Counted from the stretch's first letter, positions 11,437 through 47,715 are shown. The stretch: 64,000 bases of DNA from Candidatus Saccharimonadota bacterium (GCA_027492735.1 JAPUEE010000005.1:65719-129718); one strand, 5' to 3'. The notes: generated by a model from the sequence alone, not told the origin. Numbers and translations are program-made.

Positions 11437-13026
11437 ATGGGTAAAATAAATACCAAATATATTTTCGTGACCGGAGGAGTCCTGTCAGGCGTCGGGAAAG
11501 GCATCACAGCCGCCAGCATCGGCGCTATTTTAAAAGGTAAAGGCTTCAAAGTTTCGATGCAAAAATGTGATCCATATCTTAATGTTGATGCTGGACTACT
11601 AAATCCTGTTGAGCACGGTGAATGTTTTGTGACACGTGATGGTGCTGAGACGGATCTCGATCTAGGGCATTACGAGCGTTTTCTAGACGAGGAAACGACG
11701 CGTAATTCAATTACCTTGTCAGGCAAATTATTCCAAGATTTGATAGCCAAGGAACGGTCAGGTGGTTTTCATGGCCAAACGGTGCAACTGGTGCCACATT
11801 TAACAGATGCTATTCACGAGGCTATTAAAAAGGCTTCCGAAGGATCGGATATTCATATTTGTGAGATCGGCGGCACGGTTGGCGATTATGAGGGTCTCAG
11901 TTTTGTCGAAGCAATTAGGACGTTTGCCAATCTCGTTGGTCGTGAAAACTGTCTCTACGTGTCAGTTCTCTATGTACCGTTTCTCTCTACTAGCAAAGAA
12001 TTCAAAACCAAACCTGCTCAAAATGCATTAAAGGATCTGCGCGGCTTCGGTATTATTCCAGATATCGTGGCAGTCCGTTTGGAAAAACACGCTGGTCGCA
12101 ATGTTGCTGAGAAAATCGCTAAATTTGCAGGCATAGAGAGTGACGCAGTTATTCTGTTGCCTGACGCTACATCCGTGTATGACGTACCTCTCCAGGTTCG
12201 TGACAGCGGTGTATTGAATGTATTGAATCGATTTGTCGACAGTGACAAAGAACCTGATATGACCGCGTGGGAAGCATTGAGCCAGAGAGTTGGCATGAAA
12301 AAAGATCAGACAGTGACTGTTGGGCTAGTGGCAAAATATGTTGATAACGAGGATACGTATTTCTCTGTCACTGAGGCGCTAAAATCAGCGGCGTTTGCGT
12401 CGGGAGTTAATTTGGAAATCAAATGGCTGAATGCAGAGAAAGTGACGAGCGAAGATTTTGATGCAGTCGATGGATTGTTGGTGCCGGGCGGTTTCGGTAC
12501 CCGAGGTACCGAGGGCAAGATCGCGGCGGCAGACTATGCGCTCGAGCATAATAAACCCTATCTAGGCCTGTGCCTAGGTTTGCAAATGGCAGTGGTTGCG
12601 GCGGCGCGGCGCGGCGGCCTCGCCAGAGCTAATTCCGAGGAATTTGATGACAAAACACCAGAGAATGTAGTGTACATTATGGCTGACCAAAAGGGCAAAG
12701 AATCTACTGGCGGGACTATGAGATTAGGTGATTATCCTGCACACCTACAATCGGGTAGTTTGGCAGAACGGGTGTACGGCGCTCGTGATATCGTTGAACG
12801 TCATCGCCATCGTTACGAAGTAAATCAGAAATTCTTGCCTGAAATTGAGGCAGGCGGAGTAGTGGTGAGTGGTGCTAGCCCAGACGGCAAGTTAGTGGAG
12901 TTCATCGAGGCTCCAGACAGTACGTTCTTTGTCGCAACCCAGGCGCATCCAGAATTTCGCTCGCGCCCGACACGTCCACATCCGCTGTTTGCTGCATTTA
13001 TCGAATCGTTAAAGGAGGTATCATGA
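11437..13026 (+). CDS. pyrG: CTP synthase
   Basis: 529 aa. N-terminal KYIFVTGGVLSGVGKGITAASIG and a C-terminal glutaminase domain with GLCLGLQ and HRHRYEVN motifs. Confidence 0.95.
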   Translation: MGKINTKYIFVTGGVLSGVGKGITAASIGAILKGKGFKVSMQKCDPYLNVDAGLLNPVEHGECFVTRDGAETDLDLGHYERFLDEETTRNSITLSGKLFQDLIAKERSGGFHGQTVQLVPHLTDAIHEAIKKASEGSDIHICEIGGTVGDYEGLSFVEAIRTFANLVGRENCLYVSVLYVPFLSTSKEFKTKPAQNALKDLRGFGIIPDIVAVRLEKHAGRNVAEKIAKFAGIESDAVILLPDATSVYDVPLQVRDSGVLNVLNRFVDSDKEPDMTAWEALSQRVGMKKDQTVTVGLVAKYVDNEDTYFSVTEALKSAAFASGVNLEIKWLNAEKVTSEDFDAVDGLLVPGGFGTRGTEGKIAAADYALEHNKPYLGLCLGLQMAVVAAARRGGLARANSEEFDDKTPENVVYIMADQKGKESTGGTMRLGDYPAHLQSGSLAERVYGARDIVERHRHRYEVNQKFLPEIEAGGVVVSGASPDGKLVEFIEAPDSTFFVATQAHPEFRSRPTRPHPLFAAFIESLKEVS

Positions 13027-13268: not shown

Positions 13269-13547
13269 GTGAATTCAGACAATAACCAACCAACTAATCA
13301 ACAGCCGATTCAGGTAGTTATCGAACCAACCACGAAAAAGACAGGACTTCGGATAGGATGGGTAATCGTAGGGCTGGTGTGTTTGATGGCAGTGTGCATA
13401 GTGATTGGTAGCACGATTAGTCTACTGGCTCCACAATATAACGAAGCTCTTGGATACAGCTTGGCAATTGGGATGAGCTTGGCGGCGGTTGCTGGCGTCA
13501 TTATTGCTATCATTCAGGATGTAAAACGAAAGAAAGGTACAAAATGA
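13269..13547 (+). CDS. Small membrane protein, hypothetical (GTG start)
   Basis: 92 aa, starting immediately after the previous stop. Two hydrophobic helices. Its stop overlaps the pyrH start. Confidence 0.5.
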   Translation: MNSDNNQPTNQQPIQVVIEPTTKKTGLRIGWVIVGLVCLMAVCIVIGSTISLLAPQYNEALGYSLAIGMSLAAVAGVIIAIIQDVKRKKGTK

Positions 13548-14248
13548 GATTACTATTAAAATTATCAGGTGAACAGTTGGCGGGTGATAGCCCTAGAGGC
13601 TTTTCGGTTGAACGAGCTACGTGGATTGCCGATGAAATAAAAAAGGCCAAAACGGCCTCACCCGATGCAGAAATTGTGGTTATTGTTGGCGCCGGTAATT
13701 TTGTGCGCGGCGCGTATTTTGCAGGTCAACATGTTCGACCGGTGACAGCAGATAACATGGGGATGATGGGGACAATGATCAACGCCGTAGCGCTGGCTGA
13801 TGTTTTTAATGCCGAAGGCTTGCCGACGGCGGCCCTATCGAATATATCGTGCCAGCAAATTGTTGATGACTATACCCATCGACGAGCCTTGTCACATTTG
13901 TCCAAGGGCAGGGTAGTGATCGTGGCTGGCGGCACGGGTCGACCGTATTTTACCACTGACACGAGTGCATTGAACCTAGCTATCGAACTAGATTGCGATG
14001 TTATCGCAAAAGCCACCAAAGTCGACGGCATTTTTGATGATGATCCAGAAAAGAATCCGGATGCGCACAAGCTCGACACTATCTCCTATGACGATGCCTT
14101 GCGTGATAAAAAAGTCCGCGTTATGGACAAGGCTGCCTTGGCGCTCGCCGCCGAGCACAGCAAGCCAGTTGTCGTGTTCGAGCTGTTAAAGCCGGGCAAT
14201 ATTGCGAAAGTCGCGGGCGGGCAAACAGTCGGTACAAGCATTAGATAA
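13544..14248 (+). CDS. pyrH: UMP kinase
   Basis: 234 aa. LLKLSGE ... VVGAGNFVRG ... VIVAGGTGRPYFTTDTSALNLAIEL are typical of PyrH. Confidence 0.9.
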   Translation: MRLLLKLSGEQLAGDSPRGFSVERATWIADEIKKAKTASPDAEIVVIVGAGNFVRGAYFAGQHVRPVTADNMGMMGTMINAVALADVFNAEGLPTAALSNISCQQIVDDYTHRRALSHLSKGRVVIVAGGTGRPYFTTDTSALNLAIELDCDVIAKATKVDGIFDDDPEKNPDAHKLDTISYDDALRDKKVRVMDKAALALAAEHSKPVVVFELLKPGNIAKVAGGQTVGTSIR

Positions 14249-14289: not shown

Positions 14290-14356
14290 GTTCGCGTCTT
14301 TCGGTAGGGTCACCGTGATGTGGGTTTTTCCCATCTACTTGACGCTTCCCGCACTT

Positions 14357-14701
14357 CTAGGCTGCCACCCGCTTGGCTGCCTGCTTCCGGCCACGGGCCG
14401 GGTACTTCTGGTGGTGAACCTTGCGGCTCACTGTCGAGGTCCGGCCGAACCAGCCTTCAGTCTGGGCAATCTTGCCCGACTTGATGGCGGCGTCAACGGC
14501 CGCACGGACGGTGGTGGAGAATTCGCCGCTTCGGTAGTCGCCGAGCTGGCGATTCCGGTTGTGAACCTCTCCGGCTAGGAATCGAACCAGCTCACGGCGC
14601 GAGTTGGCACGAATGGCTCCGCCGAACTTCGTGAACACTGCCAGGACTCGTCTCTCGGCGATCCGGATCTGCTCATCGGTTGGCTCGAACTCTTTCACCA
14701 C
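14357..14701 (-). CDS. Hypothetical basic protein (island 1), GTG start as drawn
   Basis: 114 codons with high GC3 and a Lys/Arg-rich C-terminus (KYPARGRKQAAKRVAA). The start is uncertain because of the upstream C10 tract and mini-ORF. Confidence 0.5.
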   Translation of the reverse strand: MVKEFEPTDEQIRIAERRVLAVFTKFGGAIRANSRRELVRFLAGEVHNRNRQLGDYRSGEFSTTVRAAVDAAIKSGKIAQTEGWFGRTSTVSRKVHHQKYPARGRKQAAKRVAA

Positions 14702-14715
14702 CTTCCGATTGCTAC

Positions 14716-14725
14716 GGGGGGGGGG
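14716..14725. repeat. G10 homopolymer (C10 on the coding strand of the island-1 basic protein leader)
   Basis: Ten consecutive G counted directly. A +1 or -2 length change fuses the upstream mini-ORF to the 114-codon ORF. Confidence 0.9.
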
Positions 14726-14903
14726 TATGGCTGGACGATGCGTATGACGTCATCGCTCATCCTCCTCATTCTGTTGTTGTGCGGTGCACCACGTCGTCCT
14801 AGCTGGATTGCCAGGCTATCCGGTGGTGAGATAACTATAAATAGATAATATACTATTGTCAAGCAGTAGCGTAATCACCAGTGTAAACGCGCAACAGTAT
14901 TTA

Positions 14904-14932
14904 TTGACATAAACGTATTTGTATGCTACAAT
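14904..14932 (+). promoter_or_regulatory. Near-consensus promoter TTGACA-17 nt-TGcTACAAT driving the island-1 plus-strand operon
   Basis: TTGACA at 14904-14909, 17-nt spacer, extended -10 TGcTACAAT at 14924-14932. It lies in an AT-rich patch inside the GC-rich island. Confidence 0.6.
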
Positions 14933-15066
14933 AGTAAGCCATTGATCAGACAGCGAACTGGTCAAAGTAGTATTTACGTAGAACTTTTACATAGTAGGAG
15001 GTTTTGAATCTTTCCGATGTGTTATTTCCGCGTTTTTCGTGCGATAGTACACCGGGAGGGTTCGAA

Positions 15067-15411
15067 ATGGACTCACCTGGACAATCCATCGGAAGGAAGA
15101 CGTTGAAACGCTGGATACAAGGCCTAGCCCAATTGATGGGCATCTTCGTGGCCCTCGCGGCCATGAAGCTTGTATTGTTGGTTGACCGCCTAGTACGCTG
15201 GGCGGCCGATCAAAAGTCGCTGGTGGCCTTTGTGGCCATCAGCGTCGTACCGGTGCTGTTTTTCCTCGCAGTCGTGTTCGGCCTTTGGGCCGGGTACGAG
15301 TGGGGAATTATCGCGCTGCTCGTAGTTGCGGCTGGTGGCTCTATTGCTATCTTCGCGCTCATAATGACCGCGGGCCGACTGGTCCGCGCTGACTCGGAAG
15401 CGAGGAGATAA
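15067..15411 (+). CDS. Small polytopic membrane protein (island 1, gene A)
   Basis: ATG at 15067 preceded by GGGAGGG. 114 aa with about 3 TM helices and high GC3. The track ORF begins at TTG 15004. Confidence 0.55.
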   Translation: MDSPGQSIGRKTLKRWIQGLAQLMGIFVALAAMKLVLLVDRLVRWAADQKSLVAFVAISVVPVLFFLAVVFGLWAGYEWGIIALLVVAAGGSIAIFALIMTAGRLVRADSEARR

Positions 15412-15412
15412 C

Positions 15413-15655
15413 ATGACATTGCGAAAGGCGATGGGCCTCTGGTGCAGTCTGTTACTTGTCCAAATGGCTCTGGTAGCCTCAGTTCACGCGAGTACCGATC
15501 ATTACTCGAGTGAGGCTGTCGCCACATTTGATGTATTTGCTGCAATATCCGTTGCGATTGTTCTCGTGTCGGCCACGCTTAGCGTGGTTTGGACAAGGCG
15601 AGAAGCAAAACGGGCAGGTCAATCAACCCACATCAAACCGAGAGAAGGAAAGTAA
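15413..15655 (+). CDS. Small membrane/secreted protein (island 1, gene B)
   Basis: 80 aa. GAGGAG lies 7 nt upstream. Signal-like N-terminus plus one TM helix. Start is 1 nt after the gene A stop. Confidence 0.6.
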   Translation: MTLRKAMGLWCSLLLVQMALVASVHASTDHYSSEAVATFDVFAAISVAIVLVSATLSVVWTRREAKRAGQSTHIKPREGK

Positions 15656-15882
15656 TGATGCGAACGTCAAAATTCCTGGTATGGACTTCGCCAATAACGA
15701 TCTGGGCTGGAGCCGTCTGGGCTGTCGTAGCCGGGATCAACGGAGCCAGCCTCGGCGAGGCCACCGGCATTTTCGGCTGGTTTTTCCTCACCTTCATCAC
15801 CCAGATTCTCGCGGCGATCGCACTTTACGTGATCGCCGAGAAAGAGGAGGAGGCAAGGCGCCGCGGGGTCTGGACGTGGTGA
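15655..15882 (+). CDS. Small 2-TM membrane protein (island 1, gene C)
   Basis: 75 aa. TAATG overlap with gene B. Upstream GAGAGAAGGAAAG. High GC3. Confidence 0.6.
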   Translation: MMRTSKFLVWTSPITIWAGAVWAVVAGINGASLGEATGIFGWFFLTFITQILAAIALYVIAEKEEEARRRGVWTW

Positions 15883-16145
15883 GAGATCACGAGGAACGGC
15901 AAGCGCGCCGTCGACATGACTCCGCCGTGGGCCTGACCGTCGCGGTCGGGTTCACCGTTCTCTGGCTGGGTTTCCGGCCCGAGTGGTTCGGCATTGCGCC
16001 GGATACCATGACGTTCTGGTTCATCCGCCTGGTGGCGGTGATCTTGATCGTCTGCGCGATTAGCTGTGGAGTCCGCATCCACCACAATCGCAAGTCCAAG
16101 TCCAAGGCCGAGAGCGATCTTGGCCTCCCTCCTACAACGCGCTGA
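15879..16145 (+). CDS. Small 2-TM membrane protein (island 1, gene D), GTG start
   Basis: GTGGTGA overlap with the gene C stop. 88 aa with two hydrophobic helices and a basic tail. The upstream part of track ORF 15510..16145 is Arg-rich out-of-frame read-through of genes B and C. Confidence 0.5.
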   Translation: MRDHEERQARRRHDSAVGLTVAVGFTVLWLGFRPEWFGIAPDTMTFWFIRLVAVILIVCAISCGVRIHHNRKSKSKAESDLGLPPTTR

Positions 16146-16197
16146 CGCCCCTGTCAGCGTCTCCCTCGAAAGAGGTGAGGAATCAACGGGGCAACAA

Positions 16198-16319: not shown

Positions 16320-18158
16320 ATGAATTATTATGCTGATATAGTGGCTCGTACCGTCAAAGCCCTTTTTGATGTTGACATAACTATCAAGCTATCTCAACCG
16401 GACCCCAAGTTTGGTGATGTTGCAACAAATATAGCATTACAGCTCGCTGGACGTCTCGGTGAGAGTCCGCGGGAGATTGCTGAGACTATTGCAAAGGAGT
16501 TACATAGCAGCGGTGAGTTTCTGGATGTTACTATCGCGGGTCCGGGCTTTATTAATATGCGAATAGCGGCGAAACGGCTCAACAATACACTCGAGCAGGC
16601 TTTTGCTAGCGAAACGCCGTTTGGTAACAATAACGATGGCGTAAACAGAGTTGCTGTTGTTGAATATCCAAGTCCTAATATGGCGAAACCGTATAGCGTC
16701 GGACATTTGCGCAGTGGCAACCAAGGCTGGGCAGCCCGCAATTTATTGATGGCAACGGGATGGCAGGTGATAACTGACGATCATTTAGGTGATTATGGTG
16801 CGCCGTTCGGTATCTGGGTGGTTGGTTTCAAGGAGTTTTCATCCGAGGAGCAGTTGGCTGAGGGTGGGGTATATGAACTTGGTCGAGTCTATATTGAGAC
16901 CCGTCAGGCTATGAAAGACGAAGCTGAACGCGGTGAACAGCAACTAGCGGACCGGGCACAAGATTGGCTATTAAAATTAGAAAACGGCGATCCCGAGGCG
17001 GTCGAACTATCGGAAAAATTCAATGCTATTTCGCTCGAACACATCCATACTGTTATGCAGCGTCTAGGCATATCGACAGATTATGAATATGGTGAAAAGT
17101 TTTTTGCGCCCTATGGTAAAAAATGTGTACAGGACCTACTAGCGCAGGGCATTGCAACGCAAAATGACGATGGCTCGGTGATTGTTGATCTGTCAGATCA
17201 GGGAATCGATACGCCTCTTCTCATCCAAAAGAGCAATGGTGCCGCCCTCTATGCGACGACGGATCTCGCAACCATTTTGTGGCGCGAGGAGCATTGGCGA
17301 CCGAGCAAAGTTGTCTATTCGGTTGGTGCTGAACAAAAATTTTATTTTGAACAGCTAGCAGCCCTCGCGAAAAAACTCGGTATTGAAACGGAGCTGTATC
17401 ATCTGTGGTTCGGTACTATCGATCAGATAACCGAAGACGGTAAACGCGAAAAGATGTCGAGCCGCAAAGGTGTCGTGCTGATGGAGGAATTACTCGACGA
17501 AGCCGAGAGAAAGGCACGAGCCAATACGAAGTCAGAGGATATGACCGACCAGGACATTCGAAAGATTGCTGTTGGTGCGATCAAGTTCAGTGATTTCGCT
17601 GCTGATCGACGAACCGGTATGTTGTTTAACTGGGATACAATGTTTAGCCTGACAGGATTCTCCGGCCCCTATATTCAGTATGCTGCCGTCCGTATCAACA
17701 AGATTTTGCGGGATAATGGGATAGAATTGGCGACATCGTCAAATTCGTTATTCTGGGAGGCTCGCGAGGACGGCGAGCGCGTCAGCGACGAGCCCTGTGA
17801 CGACTACTCGCGCGCTGATCGGAAAGATCAGCCTTCGTCGGAAAAGTCTGCTCCGTCTATTGAATCACTGCAGAACAACGACTATGATTTCGAATCTGAA
17901 AAATCTTTACTATTGAAACTCATGGAATATCCAGAAACAATTTCTGTAGCCGCTCGCGAGCTCGAGCCGCACCGCGTAGCGAACTATGTGTATGAGTTAG
18001 CGCGCGAGCTCAATCGTTATTATGAGCAGACTCCGGTAGCAACAAAAGAAGTGCCGGATGATATTAAACAGGCTCGCCTAGGCTTACTCGTGAAAGTGTC
18101 GACAGTATTCGAGCACGCGCTCGGCATCTTGGGCATTGAAATTCCGAGTCGTATGTAA
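16320..18158 (+). CDS. argS: Arginine--tRNA ligase
   Basis: 612 aa. Class I HIGH-type motif (PNMAKPYSVGHLRS), MSSRKG (KMSKS-like) and a C-terminal DALR-type anticodon-binding segment (EPHRVANYVYELARELNRYYE). Confidence 0.95.
   Translation: MNYYADIVARTVKALFDVDITIKLSQPDPKFGDVATNIALQLAGRLGESPREIAETIAKELHSSGEFLDVTIAGPGFINMRIAAKRLNNTLEQAFASETPFGNNNDGVNRVAVVEYPSPNMAKPYSVGHLRSGNQGWAARNLLMATGWQVITDDHLGDYGAPFGIWVVGFKEFSSEEQLAEGGVYELGRVYIETRQAMKDEAERGEQQLADRAQDWLLKLENGDPEAVELSEKFNAISLEHIHTVMQRLGISTDYEYGEKFFAPYGKKCVQDLLAQGIATQNDDGSVIVDLSDQGIDTPLLIQKSNGAALYATTDLATILWREEHWRPSKVVYSVGAEQKFYFEQLAALAKKLGIETELYHLWFGTIDQITEDGKREKMSSRKGVVLMEELLDEAERKARANTKSEDMTDQDIRKIAVGAIKFSDFAADRRTGMLFNWDTMFSLTGFSGPYIQYAAVRINKILRDNGIELATSSNSLFWEAREDGERVSDEPCDDYSRADRKDQPSSEKSAPSIESLQNNDYDFESEKSLLLKLMEYPETISVAARELEPHRVANYVYELARELNRYYEQTPVATKEVPDDIKQARLGLLVKVSTVFEHALGILGIEIPSRM
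17759..17816 (+). repeat. GC-rich in-frame mini-insertion, copy 1 (in argS)
   Basis: CTCGCGAG ... CTCGCGCG bounded patch encoding AREDGERVSDEPCDDYSRA. It matches the ychF patch at 39/51 nt by hand alignment. Confidence 0.6.
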
Positions 18159-43118: not shown

Positions 43119-43353
43119 TGTGATCAGTCTAGTCGAAAACGACTGGAGGTTTCGGTTGAGTTTTGTGAAACGAGGTGTCCTACGGTGTTGCCCCTAGGGG
43201 TGGCATAGATGGGAGCTGCCGTTTCGCGCGCTCCCGTTTTGACAATTTGTTCATCTTTATATTCATGACACACCCGAAGTCTTTTGTCGTTTTCGAATGG
43301 CGAAAAGTCCACGGGGAGGTCTCGTGGCAATCGTTCCAATGAAAGGGGACGGT

Positions 43354-45534
43354 ATGAGAAAGTTGGTAGGACTGGCCTGTGCGCTGGTCCTCACGGTGCT
43401 CGGGGTCATCGCCCCGGCATCAACCGCGTCCGCCCATCAGGGCAACATCAAGGTCTCGGACACGCAGTGCGTGGACGGGAACTCGATGAAGGCCACCTAC
43501 ACCGTAGGTTGGTCCAACGGCACCGGTAGCGGCAAGCTCTACACCAAGAGTGGGCTGTACAGCGGTGGCACGTCAACGTCCGGGTGGGACTTCGAGAAGA
43601 ACGTCTCCGGCGCGTCCGGCAGCGCGTCCTTCACGAAGACCCACACCTTCTCGGGCTCCAACGGCCCGTGGGTGGCGTTCAAGATCATCTTCGACGACAA
43701 CTACGTGGTCGGCGGAGATACCCGCGTCGAGGGCTGGGATTGGGACAAGTGCAAGCCTGCACAGCCTGATCCCAAGACCGTCACCGATCACGAGGAGAGC
43801 TGCAAGATGGCCATGCCGTCGGGCAAGCTCGGTGGCGAACGTGACCGCACCGGTACTCAGGCCTACGTCTGGAACGGATCCAGCTGGGTGCTCGGCGACA
43901 CCATCAAGTGGGGCGACTGGAAGTACACGCCCTACACCGACAGTCAGTACTTCAGCAAGTGTGCCGGGGACAATCCCGGCCCGAAGTACAGCGAGTGGTC
44001 ATCGTGGTCCAACGAGCAGCCGACCTGCGAGAGCACGATGGTGACGCAGACCCGGACGCGCACGAAGACCACTTACACCTGGGTCTGGAACGGCATGAAG
44101 GATCGTGGTGACTGGGTCGTCGATGAGGTGACCGAGGACAAGGAGACCCGCAAGGTCGAGATGTCCGACAAGGACTTCGCGGCCAACTGCAAGCCCGACC
44201 AGCCGGCGCCCAAGGCGCACACCGATTTCCAGAAGGGTTGCACCCTGAACGACGTCGGCGGCACCGCCACTAGGAACGGCACCGAGGCCTACAAGTGGGA
44301 CCTCGAGGATCGCAAGTGGGTCCTCAGTGGCAAGATCGACTGGCAGGACTGGGTCTTCACGGCCTACACCGACCAGGAGTTCCAGGCCAACTGCGCAGGT
44401 TCTCCCGAGCCCGACAAGGTCGTGGTGGACAAGGGCGAGTGGGTCGGGCAACCGACCTGTGATGCTCCCTCGATCTACCAGACTCGCGAGGTGGTCACGA
44501 CGACCACCAAGCAGGTCTGGAACCTCGATCTCCGCAAGTGGGAGTGGGGGACGCCGACCTCGGTAACCACCACGGAGACCGCCAAGAAGCCGACCGAGCT
44601 GACCAAGGATCAGATCAAGGCCTGCCATCCCAAGGATGCGCCGACCTTGGCCTACACCGGTCAGACCTGCACCGTTGGTGATCAGGGAGTCGGCCAACTT
44701 CACGGCGGCAGCCTGACGGTTACCAGCAGCGGCTGGACCGTCAAGGTCACCGACAAGGACGGGAAGGTCGTCAAGGACCTGACCGATCTCGATCCCGGCA
44801 ACTACACCGTCACGGCCAGCCTGGCCGATCCTGACGGTACCTCGGCTGGGAACATCGACGGCTGGACTCCGGGCGAGGACGGCACGATCAGCCAGATCGT
44901 CAACATCGCCACGGCGGACGACTGCACCATTCTCGAGCCGAAGCCCCGCGTGGAGCCCAAGGTCGAGGAGAAGCTCGAGTGCGACGGGGCCTACCGCCGC
45001 ACCTGGGATCTGGTCAGCTATCCCGTCTGGAAGGACGGGGAGTGGACCTTTGACGGGGTCGAGCCCAAGGTCGAGAACGAGACCGAGTGGAAGAAGTTCC
45101 GCGAGCTGTCGAACGACGAGTGGTTGGCCGCTGGCTGCCGCTCTGACCAGCCGCCGGCTCAGGTTCGTGTGATCCACGACCAGGGTTACAACTGTGATGG
45201 ACTCTGGGGTCGTACCCAGACCGGTACCACCGAGTACGTGTGGGTATGGTCCGGCATGGCCGACCGTGGCAGCTGGGTCCTCGGCGACGAGGTGCTCGGC
45301 GACTGGAGCGAGTGGACGTTCGTCCGCGAACTGACCAAGGCGGAGAAGGCGGAGTTGGGCTGCAACAGCACCCCGAATTCGCCGAATCAGCCGAAGGTGC
45401 CCCCAGTAGACGAGGACAACAGCGATGGCGTTCGCGCCGCCGCTGACCCTGCGCCGCTCATTGGCCTGGGTGTTCTCGCCGCGCTCGGCATCGCCGGTGC
45501 AGTCATTGCCATCCGGCGCCGCCGTCAGGCATGA
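43354..45534 (+). CDS. Secreted Cys/Trp-rich repeat surface protein with C-terminal TM helix + RRRR anchor (no LPXTG)
   Basis: ATG at 43354 after GAAAGGGGA. Signal peptide MRKLVGLACALVLTVLGVIAPASTASA. Six modules of about 55-70 aa are bracketed by Cys and rich in Trp/Tyr. C-terminus is DPAPLIGLGVLAALGIAGAVIAIRRRRQA. Confidence 0.8.
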   Translation: MRKLVGLACALVLTVLGVIAPASTASAHQGNIKVSDTQCVDGNSMKATYTVGWSNGTGSGKLYTKSGLYSGGTSTSGWDFEKNVSGASGSASFTKTHTFSGSNGPWVAFKIIFDDNYVVGGDTRVEGWDWDKCKPAQPDPKTVTDHEESCKMAMPSGKLGGERDRTGTQAYVWNGSSWVLGDTIKWGDWKYTPYTDSQYFSKCAGDNPGPKYSEWSSWSNEQPTCESTMVTQTRTRTKTTYTWVWNGMKDRGDWVVDEVTEDKETRKVEMSDKDFAANCKPDQPAPKAHTDFQKGCTLNDVGGTATRNGTEAYKWDLEDRKWVLSGKIDWQDWVFTAYTDQEFQANCAGSPEPDKVVVDKGEWVGQPTCDAPSIYQTREVVTTTTKQVWNLDLRKWEWGTPTSVTTTETAKKPTELTKDQIKACHPKDAPTLAYTGQTCTVGDQGVGQLHGGSLTVTSSGWTVKVTDKDGKVVKDLTDLDPGNYTVTASLADPDGTSAGNIDGWTPGEDGTISQIVNIATADDCTILEPKPRVEPKVEEKLECDGAYRRTWDLVSYPVWKDGEWTFDGVEPKVENETEWKKFRELSNDEWLAAGCRSDQPPAQVRVIHDQGYNCDGLWGRTQTGTTEYVWVWSGMADRGSWVLGDEVLGDWSEWTFVRELTKAEKAELGCNSTPNSPNQPKVPPVDEDNSDGVRAAADPAPLIGLGVLAALGIAGAVIAIRRRRQA

Positions 45535-45583
45535 TGTGAGAAGATGAACAAGTGCGAACTGCCAGCCAGGTAGCTCGCTCCCT

Positions 45584-45622
45584 GGGGTCTGATCTTGTCG
45601 CTCTCGCGACCGATCAGACCCC
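45584..45622 (+). terminator. Long hairpin plus T-rich tail after the surface protein gene
   Basis: GGGGTCTGATC ... GATCAGACCCC with inner GTCGC-tctc-GCGAC, followed by tcttctcatttc. Confidence 0.6.
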
Positions 45623-45679
45623 TCTTCTCATTTCTGGGGACAAAGATGTATAAAAATATTTTACAAAAAACACTAAATG

Positions 45680-45688
45680 TGATATAAT
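45680..45688 (+). promoter_or_regulatory. Extended -10 (TGaTATAAT) in the AT-rich spacer upstream of the sortase-like gene
   Basis: Exact TGnTATAAT, about 90 nt before the ATG at 45779. GAAGGTGG Shine-Dalgarno at 45763-45770. Confidence 0.55.
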
Positions 45689-45778
45689 AGAAAGTGCGCC
45701 TAGCAACAGATGCAAATCTGACTGGGCTTACCTCGAAGTAATCAATCTATCCATAATCCACAGAAGGTGGTGAACGTA

Positions 45779-46477
45779 ATGAAGCGCACAGTACTTGCCA
45801 TGCTTTGCCTGGCGGTGAGCGCCGCGTCGCTGTTCGGTGCCTTCTGGTACTGGAACAACGTCTACGCGGAGATCGAGGTCCCGATGGCCCCAATTCCGTC
45901 GCCAACGGTATCGTCGATCACGGTGCCGGTGAACGACGACGAGAAGCTCCCGCCGGTCGACATGCCGGAGAACCCTCGCGGCAAGCTAGATCACCTCGTT
46001 ATCTACCACGGTGGCAAGGCCATCGTCTCGATGGATTTCGGTCCAGCGACCTACGATTCCCTAGGGTGGGGATCCGAGTGCGGCAAGGTGGCCTATCGCG
46101 ACCGCGACGACTTCCCAAAGCCTGGTTTCGCCAGCAAAAACCGTTCGCTCGTGTCAGGTCACGTCTGGTGTGATAGGGAAACCTATACGCTAAACGATCT
46201 GGACAAGGTTCGGAAAGGTGACCGGGTTGAGGTCTACTACTCGTCCGGAGACGTGGCGGTAGGTCAGGCTGAGGCCGACGCCGCCGCCCTGCCGAAGGAC
46301 GAGCTGAATGCTGAACACAAGGGTCAGGTCAACCCCCGGCTCCGCAACAGCAAGAAGCTACGGACGATGCGAGTCAGTACCTGTGACACTGACTCGCCGG
46401 TGCGGGCGAACGGCCACTTGTCGGCCAACGTCTACGTACTGTACACGTTCAAGGAAATCAGATTTGCCGAACAGTAG
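45779..46477 (+). CDS. Membrane-anchored sortase-like transpeptidase (class E/F-like)
   Basis: 232 aa. N-terminal TM helix. His motif SLVSGHVW, then DKVRKGDRVEVYYSSGDV, Cys motif TMRVSTCDT and NVYVLYTF, in the order and spacing seen in actinobacterial sortases. High GC3. Confidence 0.6.
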   Translation: MKRTVLAMLCLAVSAASLFGAFWYWNNVYAEIEVPMAPIPSPTVSSITVPVNDDEKLPPVDMPENPRGKLDHLVIYHGGKAIVSMDFGPATYDSLGWGSECGKVAYRDRDDFPKPGFASKNRSLVSGHVWCDRETYTLNDLDKVRKGDRVEVYYSSGDVAVGQAEADAAALPKDELNAEHKGQVNPRLRNSKKLRTMRVSTCDTDSPVRANGHLSANVYVLYTFKEIRFAEQ

Positions 46478-46536: not shown

Positions 46537-47715
46537 TTAGACATTAAATCGGAATTCGACGATGTCATCAGGCTGCATAATGTAGTTTTTGCCTTCGGTG
46601 CGAAGTTTGCCGGCAGCTTTGGCGGCCGCTTCTGAGCCTAGCTCGATCAGATCCGGATATGAAACAATCTGAGCAGCAATAAAGCCTTTTTCAAAGTCAG
46701 TGTGAATGACGCCGGCGGCCTGTGGGGCGGTCGAACCTTGTGTGATGGTCCAGGCGCGAACCTCTTTTGGTCCAGCCGTCAAATAACTCTGGAGACCTAA
46801 CGTATCATAGGCGGCGTGCGCCAGTTTTACGAGGCCGGATTCAGTAACGCCGTAGTCGGCGAGCAGTTCGGTGGCTTCGACGGCGCTCAGCTCGCGGAGT
46901 TGGCTTTCGAGTTCGGCGCAGACAAAGACAACCTGCGGACCGCCTGATGATGATAGCTCTCGCGAACGCTCCGCGCGCCCGTCGTTACGGGGCTTGTCGC
47001 TGGCGCCATTGCCGTCCTGCTGGAGCCTCGCGAGAGCCACATCATCACCGATTATTCTAGCTAATTCCTGTTGCTTTGTCTGGTCAGTCAATCCGTTCTC
47101 GTCGACATTGAACAAATAAATTATTGGTTTAGCAGTTAACAGATCGAGACCGTGTAATTTTTCGCTATCAAAACTAGCTGGTGTATTGCCAGCGAGCAGC
47201 TGACTCTGGAGAGTTGTGAGATAGTCGACAGTGGAGCGCATCTTTGGATCACTCTTGGCTTCTTTCATGACCTTTGGTAGATGATTTTCGATGGTGGCGA
47301 TGTCGGCGAGCATGAGTTCGGTGTTGATGACTTCGATATCGCTCTTCGGATCAGTAATCGTGGCGCCATCGGCTCTCTGGACGGTTGATGACTCAAACGC
47401 TCGAACCACGTGACAAATAGCGTCACATTCACGAATATTGGCGAGGAATTTATTGCCGAGACCTTCGCCACGACTAGCGCCTGCTACAAGACCGGCGACG
47501 TCAACAAATTCCACGGTAGCGGGGATGATCTTGTCGGTTTTATACAGGTCTGCGAGTACGTCGAGGCGCTCATCAGGAACTGGTACGATGCCAGTATTAG
47601 GTTCGATTGTCGCAAATGGGTAGTTAGCAGCTAAAATAGTGCCGCCTGTCAGGGCGTTAAATAGGGTGGACTTACCAACGTTGGGTAACCCGACGAGACC
47701 GATCTTGAGACTCAT
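46537..47715 (-). CDS. ychF: Ribosome-binding ATPase YchF, with about 30-aa internal insertion
   Basis: GLVGLPNVGKSTLFNALT G1 motif. C-terminal TGS-like GKNYIMQPDDIVEFRFNV. 392 aa, against about 363 typical. Confidence 0.9.
   Translation of the reverse strand: MSLKIGLVGLPNVGKSTLFNALTGGTILAANYPFATIEPNTGIVPVPDERLDVLADLYKTDKIIPATVEFVDVAGLVAGASRGEGLGNKFLANIRECDAICHVVRAFESSTVQRADGATITDPKSDIEVINTELMLADIATIENHLPKVMKEAKSDPKMRSTVDYLTTLQSQLLAGNTPASFDSEKLHGLDLLTAKPIIYLFNVDENGLTDQTKQQELARIIGDDVALARLQQDGNGASDKPRNDGRAERSRELSSSGGPQVVFVCAELESQLRELSAVEATELLADYGVTESGLVKLAHAAYDTLGLQSYLTAGPKEVRAWTITQGSTAPQAAGVIHTDFEKGFIAAQIVSYPDLIELGSEAAAKAAGKLRTEGKNYIMQPDDIVEFRFNV
46956..47037 (-). repeat. GC-rich in-frame mini-insertion, copy 2 (in ychF), with 10-bp terminal inverted repeats
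   Basis: GCTCTCGCGA (46956-46965) and TCGCGAGAGC (47028-47037). Encodes LARLQQDGNGASDKPRNDGRAERSRE. Homologous to the argS patch. Confidence 0.6.

Follow-up and report, generated by a model that had tools for sequence, protein, structure and literature searches.

Two GC-rich patches in argS (arginine--tRNA ligase) and ychF (ribosome-binding ATPase), located in 64,000 nt of DNA of Candidatus Saccharimonadota bacterium (GCA_027492735.1 JAPUEE010000005.1:65719-129718; the whole stretch is referred to as the window), are copies of one family of ~80-base hairpin-forming repeats in Saccharibacteria genes. We consider it likely that both belong to a selfish family of short, GC-rich, non-coding hairpin repeats that resembles the Rickettsia palindromic elements (RPEs) and has spread through Saccharibacteria genomes. 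A preliminary description of this DNA had proposed a small GC-rich mobile or recombinogenic module of the RPE kind; comparisons to shuffled sequences, further copies, the absence of the insert from orthologues and a disordered loop in a structure model all agree with this proposal.

Related patches in argS and ychF

The GC content of each patch is 68-69%, compared to 47.5% for the window overall. The element frame is identical in the two genes, as the preliminary description had stated and as the translations bear out (...WEAREDGERVSDEPCDDYSRADRKDQP in argS, ...ARLQQDGNGASDKPRNDGRAERSRE in ychF). The local alignment score of the pair is 28 (z ~11), compared to 9.5 +/- 1.6 for dinucleotide shuffles and 9.4 +/- 1.7 for codon shuffles; a score of 28 was reached by 0/5000 shuffles of each type, and the best score of any other GC-rich 82-nt stretch of the window is 14. 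In a blastn comparison inside the window, the pair had E = 5e-7 (74% identity, 66 columns), and the next best match had E of ~0.1-0.5. The claimed homology of the patches is supported by these controls, and the codon-wise match given earlier as 39/51 nt is close to our hand count of 38/51. Chance similarity, shared GC-rich composition or an assembly artefact would be compatible with the GC content of both patches, 68-69% in a 47.5% GC window. This explanation is refuted by the shuffles, by the lack of any other GC-rich stretch of the window that comes close, and by the presence of the element in independent assemblies, including the complete genome CP064991.1.

A family profile built from 14 members matched exactly two places when the window was searched with nhmmer: ychF at 46951-47046, where the match is full length (E = 1.7e-21), and argS at 17743-17804, where it covers only profile columns 8-70 (E = 2e-11). 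Other GC-rich patches of the window (1601, 11466, 12480-12647, 14338-16165, 24481, 58508) were considered as relatives, and no relation to the element was found. The palindrome CTCGCGAG is present at 7 sites of the window (17761, 17953, 19784, 26220, 38430, 44483, 47027), with 1.3 expected from shuffles. Element-like context surrounds only the two sites inside elements; those at 17953, 19784, 26220, 38430 and 44483 have no such context, resemble A/S/T-R-E codon strings and were rejected.

The ychF copy is complete (Table 1). It is ordered as a native arm GGTGATGAT, an inner inverted repeat, the core and an inverted copy ATCATCATC, and it codes for residues ~224-257 (DDVALARLQQDGNGASDKPRNDGRAERSRELSSS). 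The inner repeat, GCTCTCGCGA / TCGCGAGAGC at 46956-46965 and 47028-47037, is 100% complementary in a repeat search; the outer inverted repeat is a perfect 8 nt (46945-46952 / 47040-47047). The predicted fold has an energy of -59.8 kcal/mol (z = -5.2). The patch delimited previously is real, but the unit is larger, consisting of a 79-nt core and copy-specific stems, ~104 nt in ychF.

Table 1. Features of the window copies, and cases of a native arm paired with its inverted copy
Feature	Position in window	Strand	Evidence or comparison
Host gene argS	16320..18158	+	Pfam
Internally deleted element copy in argS	17760..17815	+	profile match; inverted repeat; alignment to ychF copy
Extra in-frame coding DNA KDQPSSEKSAPSIESLQNN	17816..17885	+	orthologue alignment; profile coverage ends at 17804
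Host gene ychF	46537..47715	-	Pfam
Complete element in ychF, 104 nt	46946..47049	-	nhmmer E = 1.7e-21; fold; inverted repeats; empty-site orthologue L031
ychF core unit	46956..47037	-	perfect 10-nt terminal inverted repeat; aligns with 13 other copies
Most conserved internal hairpin CCCCGTAACGACGGGC, stem CCCGT/ACGGG	46977..46992	-	alignment columns 58-76
Native/inverted arm, window ychF			empty site L031
Native/inverted arm, L004 ychF			arm includes conserved A-E-L codons
Native/inverted arm, QueA			1VKY
Native/inverted arm, both RsmA copies			6IFV
Native/inverted arm, ArgS L001			empty-site DNA of L050

The argS copy has terminal repeats GCTCGCGAG / CTCGCGCGC (9 nt; 17760-17768 and 17807-17815, with CTCGCGAG at 17761-17768) that enclose 38 nt rather than 62 nt as in ychF; thus, this copy is internally deleted. 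The 3' half of the core is absent, the terminal inverted repeats are kept, and the copy folds poorly (z = -1.2), without the long closing helix of other copies. Immediately 3' of it are ~23 extra codons that have no counterpart in any orthologue and no match to the family profile. They include a perfect 7-bp hairpin, GCTGATC-ggaaa-GATCAGC, that had been placed at 17,813-17,831, after the patch. The hairpin exists, one position further along (17814-17832), but it lies outside the family, since profile coverage ends at 17804.

Placement of the two inserts in a linker or loop, also part of the preliminary description, holds for YchF and ArgS, the two proteins for which this was assessed. The YchF insert falls in the loop that joins helix 212-223 to strand 261-265, where the alignment to 1JAL breaks after NVNEDG; in the AlphaFold model, residues 225-258 form a disordered loop (predicted local distance difference test score below 50, coil, no secondary structure). 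In ArgS, the first and second helices of the DALR anticodon-binding domain flank the insert, and residues 477 and 493 of E. coli ArgRS 4OBY mark the break in the alignment.

Most ArgS and YchF orthologues lack the insert. The ArgS linker is 17-19 residues long in 76/87 orthologues measured, compared to 63 in the window, 54 in P0008 and 31 in P0002. P0002 (79% identical) has kept only REDGERVSD, and the corresponding DNA is the 5' third of the element. P0008 (locus L001) has the element at the same site in the opposite orientation, and its SSLTRSPSSR is the reverse-complement reading of element DNA. The YchF loop after NVDENG is an insertion hot spot, with large inserts in 35/113 orthologues; many of these differ in sequence and sit at slightly different codons. 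The insert found in the window is common to the group around CP064991.1 (locus L005), and ychF of L031 is an empty site. It should be noted that the YchF proteins P0161, P0175, P0220 and P0163 carry other hairpin insertions.

A dispersed family with a folded core

Using a 22-nt degenerate pattern from the core and one genome per species, we obtained 21 matches. Extended homology of ~100 nt is shared by 10 of these, all from Saccharibacteria or other genomes of the candidate phyla radiation (CPR); the other 11 share only the pattern, and their number is approximately the chance estimate. At least six copies are present in the genome Nc150P4bin6 and two in Lab288P4bin92. Further host genes, named by Pfam and Protein Data Bank alignments, are those for RecG, TopA, TsaC-TrmB, PheT (two copies), ValS (two), a LysS-type synthetase and QueA, as well as ClpC, MetK, IleS and RsmA (two), which were added by a scan of metagenomes; the copies added in this way are mostly from termite-gut samples. 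Most copies found are from termite-gut Saccharibacteria genomes. Three copies are intergenic, located between genes for an S41 protease and a response regulator, between dnaA and rpmH, and beside pnp. The search for further copies suggested in the preliminary description thus turned up copies in related genomes, both between genes and within some dozen other housekeeping genes. No match was found in viral contigs scanned with two element patterns. At the protein level, a padded profile of the encoded peptide gave only 2 matches, and an exhaustive search with this peptide returned repetitive proteins that match the flank and not the motif. The fetched loci contained no orthologues of the other host genes that could serve as extra empty sites.

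Core identity is 81-97% within a genome, compared to 70-79% between genomes; the 79-nt cores have a GC content of 62-71%. RNAalifold applied to 14 full copies predicted 24 pairs arranged in a three-way junction, with compensatory changes in 13/24. Paired cells amount to 92.9%, whereas sliding the partners by 1-3 columns reduces this value to 37-52%, and none of 500 shuffles equals the real alignment in percentage paired, compensatory counts or covariation score. In columns 58-76 of the 14-copy alignment, pairs are invariant or show the compensatory change CG to UA. Folds of seven single copies have z = -3.7 to -8.3. Every fetched YchF copy and the ArgS copy of L001 have a long closing helix around two internal hairpins. 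Rfam 15 contains no matching family: only one tRNA reaches the gathering score in the window, and the ychF region has only two weak matches at chance level (E of 3-5).

All genic copies examined are in frame, have lengths divisible by three and contain no stop codon, and both orientations occur. A copy is typically open in two of its forward frames and in one to three of its reverse frames. Because the element is found in both orientations, the peptide shared by ArgS and YchF is a by-product of shared DNA. The alternative, a charged linker motif (D-G-x3-S-D-x-P-x2-D-x-R-A-[DE]-R) acquired or convergent for a function at the protein level, could explain why 13/14 forward genic copies use one frame though the second forward frame is usually open, and the peptide is hydrophilic and tolerable on a protein surface. 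We regard this as very unlikely: the remaining forward copy uses the other forward frame (SPVTTG), reverse-oriented copies are read as the unrelated peptide ...RRSARPSLRGLSLTLSPSF..., by hand count, most differences that separate the argS copy from the ychF copy are nonsynonymous, what is conserved is the nucleotide sequence, third positions included, the structure model shows a disordered insert, and some copies are intergenic.

The long perfect closing helices and the conserved core would also suit recognition by a processing enzyme, and the sequence of the peptide appears irrelevant. Both points are in line with an untranslated intervening sequence that is excised from mRNA at the base of the long stem, followed by religation, or is bypassed by the ribosome. 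Removal of the segment would make an open frame and a length divisible by three unnecessary, but every genic copy examined has both. The contexts examined showed no gene interrupted by a copy, and the copies in short open reading frames (ORFs) with checked contexts are truly intergenic. Such processing is highly improbable.

The two RsmA copies (L041:3-446) are in opposite orientation, ~45 nt apart, in the N-terminal part of a single small gene, where they add ~70 residues between KKSLGQNW and LEIGPG. The intergenic copy at L039:4236-4332, between dnaA and rpmH, is in the usual neighbourhood of a replication origin. Other, unrelated families of long hairpins are present in frame in the same genes: TopA (L011:1595-4039), RecG (L010:5849-7999) and ValS (L024:3442-6438). 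The TopA insert, ...CHPELVSG..KILKQVQDD.., contains a near-perfect 30-bp palindrome; another, ...IPDDxDR..DGSAGxPAYDV..DGSE.., is found in RecG and in one YchF. Given these unrelated families in the same genes, in-frame insertion of hairpins looks like a general habit of these genomes.

Arms, footprints and persistence of the copies

Outside the core, each copy has its own closing inverted repeat of 10-30 bp. Arm complementarity is 12.7 on average for arms of the same copy, compared to 5.2 +/- 1.2 for arms of different copies. The copies L011 and L027, both from one genome, have cores that are 97% identical and arms that are unrelated (terminal repeats TTCTGCGC / GCGCAGAA). In all six cases where the native sequence is recognisable, one arm belongs to the native gene and the opposite arm repeats it in inverted form (Table 1). 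A rule that the native arm is always at the 5' side of the element was ruled out by the reverse-oriented RsmA copy, in which it is at the 3' side. At three empty/filled pairs (L006/L030, L001/L050, window/L031), no direct target duplication was found; the flanks are inverted copies. The ychF gene of L030 (1501-2586), a close relative of L006, lacks the element and has a perfect 16-nt palindrome, GCCGAAGCGCTTCGGC, made of GCCGAAGC and GCTTCGGC; L006 has a 99-nt element exactly between these two halves. The palindrome reads as a footprint of loss or, possibly, as a palindromic target. In the argS linker of the window, just upstream of the element (17709-17755), RNAfold predicts an imperfect hairpin with native CGGGATAATGG opposite TCGTTATTCTG and an inner GGCGAC..GTC stem; this weak signal may represent an older footprint. 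A link to TIGR-Tas stem-loop arrays, considered because of GUGAUGA in the ychF arm, was discarded: the motif derives from native G-D-D codons and is absent in other copies.

The element would have spread as single-stranded, self-folding DNA or by template switching during replication. The self-complementary ends of the core would allow a nascent or transferred strand to fold back and copy the adjacent flank in reverse, at insertion or afterwards, producing the order flank, core, inverted flank. Such copying would lengthen the hairpin and keep the arms complementary, and deletion of the middle would leave a palindromic footprint. Genic copies would survive only where they are in frame, free of stop codons and located in tolerant surface loops, and the survivors would be translated as a disordered, charged peptide. 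A more far-reaching version, in which the element and its sister hairpin families spread without a conventional transposase through fold-back or template switching and the copies are then kept at the nucleotide level by the host, is a speculation that we consider rather doubtful.

A single insertion seems to have given rise to the ychF copies of both the window and L005, judging from the same subfamily core, the same codon position and a shared imperfection, CTATC opposite GATGT. Their 75-nt cores (window vs CP064991.1, L005:10686-10781) have 3 differences (~96% identity), two nonsynonymous and one synonymous. Elsewhere in ychF, third positions of identical residues are 59.5% identical (n = 328), i.e., synonymous sites are ~40% diverged. 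Near-identity of the cores despite this divergence fits neither neutral decay nor selection at the peptide level; constraint at the nucleotide level and conversion from unsampled copies are candidate causes. The argS remnant is likewise 23/24 identical between the window and L003, whereas argS third positions elsewhere are 48% identical (n = 464).

Several points weigh against a selfish, mobile family. Under neutral decay, a selfish insert would be expected to show much greater divergence than the ychF cores of the window and CP064991.1, and five compensatory pair differences between the window and L005 stems point to active maintenance. There are only two copies in the window, one shared with CP064991.1 (ychF) and one with a relative that keeps only the 5' third (argS), and in this lineage both appear to be old copies passed on by vertical descent and not to have moved recently. 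The 8-20-kb loci around copies revealed no transposase, no reverse transcriptase and no longer autonomous partner. With regard to the insertion model, the native arm is gene-upstream in 5/6 cases and the side of the inverted copy is not constant; the MetK copy (L038) is an exception in that it is flanked by an 11-nt self-complementary direct repeat. Finally, we infer retention of the element in mRNA and protein from reading frames only.

Some of the same observations would be expected if the element were a functional structured nucleic acid under selection at each locus, for example, an element affecting mRNA stability or translation speed or a protein-bound DNA site, maybe an exapted selfish repeat. 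Covariation is strong in the core and in the stems, the ychF cores are nearly identical and their substitution types are opposite to those expected under peptide-level constraint, compensatory stem changes accompany an imperfection common to both copies, and the argS remnant is conserved far beyond its third positions elsewhere. Conversely, copies are found in unrelated genes as well as between genes, and with respect to the host mRNA they can point either way; truncated copies that are unable to fold (window argS, L003) are conserved too; most orthologues manage without the element; and there is no Rfam family match. We therefore consider a locus-specific function unlikely, and the selfish, RPE-like family remains our preferred interpretation.

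GC-rich stretches also border the host genes in the window. A 3-kb block (43297-46477, 56-64% GC) adjoins ychF and encodes secreted or membrane-anchored proteins of 745 aa and 236 aa; ORFs of similar size at the same position in L005 and L031 indicate that it is probably native and not recently transferred. The stretch 14338-16165 (54-57% GC), located between a gene of the amino-acid-kinase family (13544..14248) and argS, exceeds the length of the matching interval in the relative L003; within it are an ORF of 211 aa whose C-terminus is hydrophobic and further ORFs that overlap on the two strands.

Relation to known elements and implications

The RPEs are short palindromic repeats found in frame in unrelated essential genes (Ogata et al. 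2000, summarised in PMC10969869). As far as they are described in that summary, the Saccharibacteria family resembles them in being short, dispersed and palindromic, without coding capacity of its own, in residing both between genes and, in frame, within unrelated essential genes, in being translated as an extra surface peptide, in having a host-dependent bacterium with a small genome as carrier, and in having no known mobilising enzyme. Several copies per genome, a stable predicted hairpin, in-frame position in unrelated genes and, for YchF and ArgS, location in a surface loop were all found here. By the same summary, the Saccharibacteria family differs in belonging to another phylum, in the size of its core (79 nt, compared to roughly 100-150 bp for RPEs) and in being GC-rich relative to the genome. 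Further distinctions are the three-way junction of the core, the copy-specific stems derived from an inverted target flank and the palindromic footprint at an emptied site. With phylum, length and composition all differing, the family is unlikely to share sequence homology with RPE-1 to RPE-10.

Classical miniature inverted-repeat transposable elements are also small, non-autonomous and multi-copy, with terminal inverted repeats (8-10 nt here) around a core and occasional in-frame intragenic copies. In contrast to these, the present family shows no consistent direct target-site duplication at the three empty/filled pairs, and the majority of its known copies lie inside genes. In the 8-20-kb loci around the copies, there was no sign of a parent insertion sequence with matching ends, and the profile search showed no pair of half-elements around an ORF.

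REP/BIME-RAYT and IS200/IS605-derived palindromic elements are similar in that they consist of hairpin units that would act as single-stranded DNA and do not duplicate the target; moreover, the two internal hairpins of the core, which have similar loops (U-N-ACGA), resemble the paired subterminal hairpins of the IS200/IS605 type. Those elements, however, are extragenic and linked to or near a Y1 (HUH) transposase gene, whereas no such gene was identified in the 8-20-kb loci and most of our copies are intragenic, with three examined copies intergenic. A conserved target tetranucleotide was not seen among the copies.

Quasipalindrome template switching (Ripley model) is an established replication mechanism that perfects and can extend imperfect inverted repeats (PMC7202029). 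It would account for the complementary copy-specific arms and for compensatory changes without selection. However, it is a mutational process and not an element, and it leaves unaccounted for the spread of the core to a dozen or more genes and the conservation of unpaired segments. The palindromic amphipathic repeat coding elements of Mollicutes, described in PMC2996958 as intragenic tandem repeats that encode amphipathic units in surface proteins, are likewise palindromic repeat DNA inside coding sequence; compared to this account, the Saccharibacteria copies are single dispersed insertions in housekeeping enzymes and not tandem repeats. Literature searches of open-access papers and preprints yielded no description of such a family for Saccharibacteria or other CPR bacteria, in agreement with the preliminary description, which knew of no such module in CPR-type genomes.

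CPR genomes are tiny and gene-dense, with almost no room for selfish DNA, and this family lives inside essential genes. It extends the RPE precedent to a second, unrelated lineage of host-dependent bacteria and offers an explanation for many odd loop insertions in CPR housekeeping proteins. In Saccharibacteria, such inserts can lead to errors in gene trees, domain annotation and structure prediction. The combination of inverted flank copies, a palindromic footprint and near-identical orthologous copies at near-saturated synonymous sites is unusual, and questions of insertion and persistence are testable with existing metagenomes. If spread through fold-back without a transposase were true, it would represent a previously unrecognised mode of DNA mobility, characterised by inverted target duplications, ever-longer hairpins and palindromic footprints, and would be a major source of lineage-specific loop insertions in CPR proteins.

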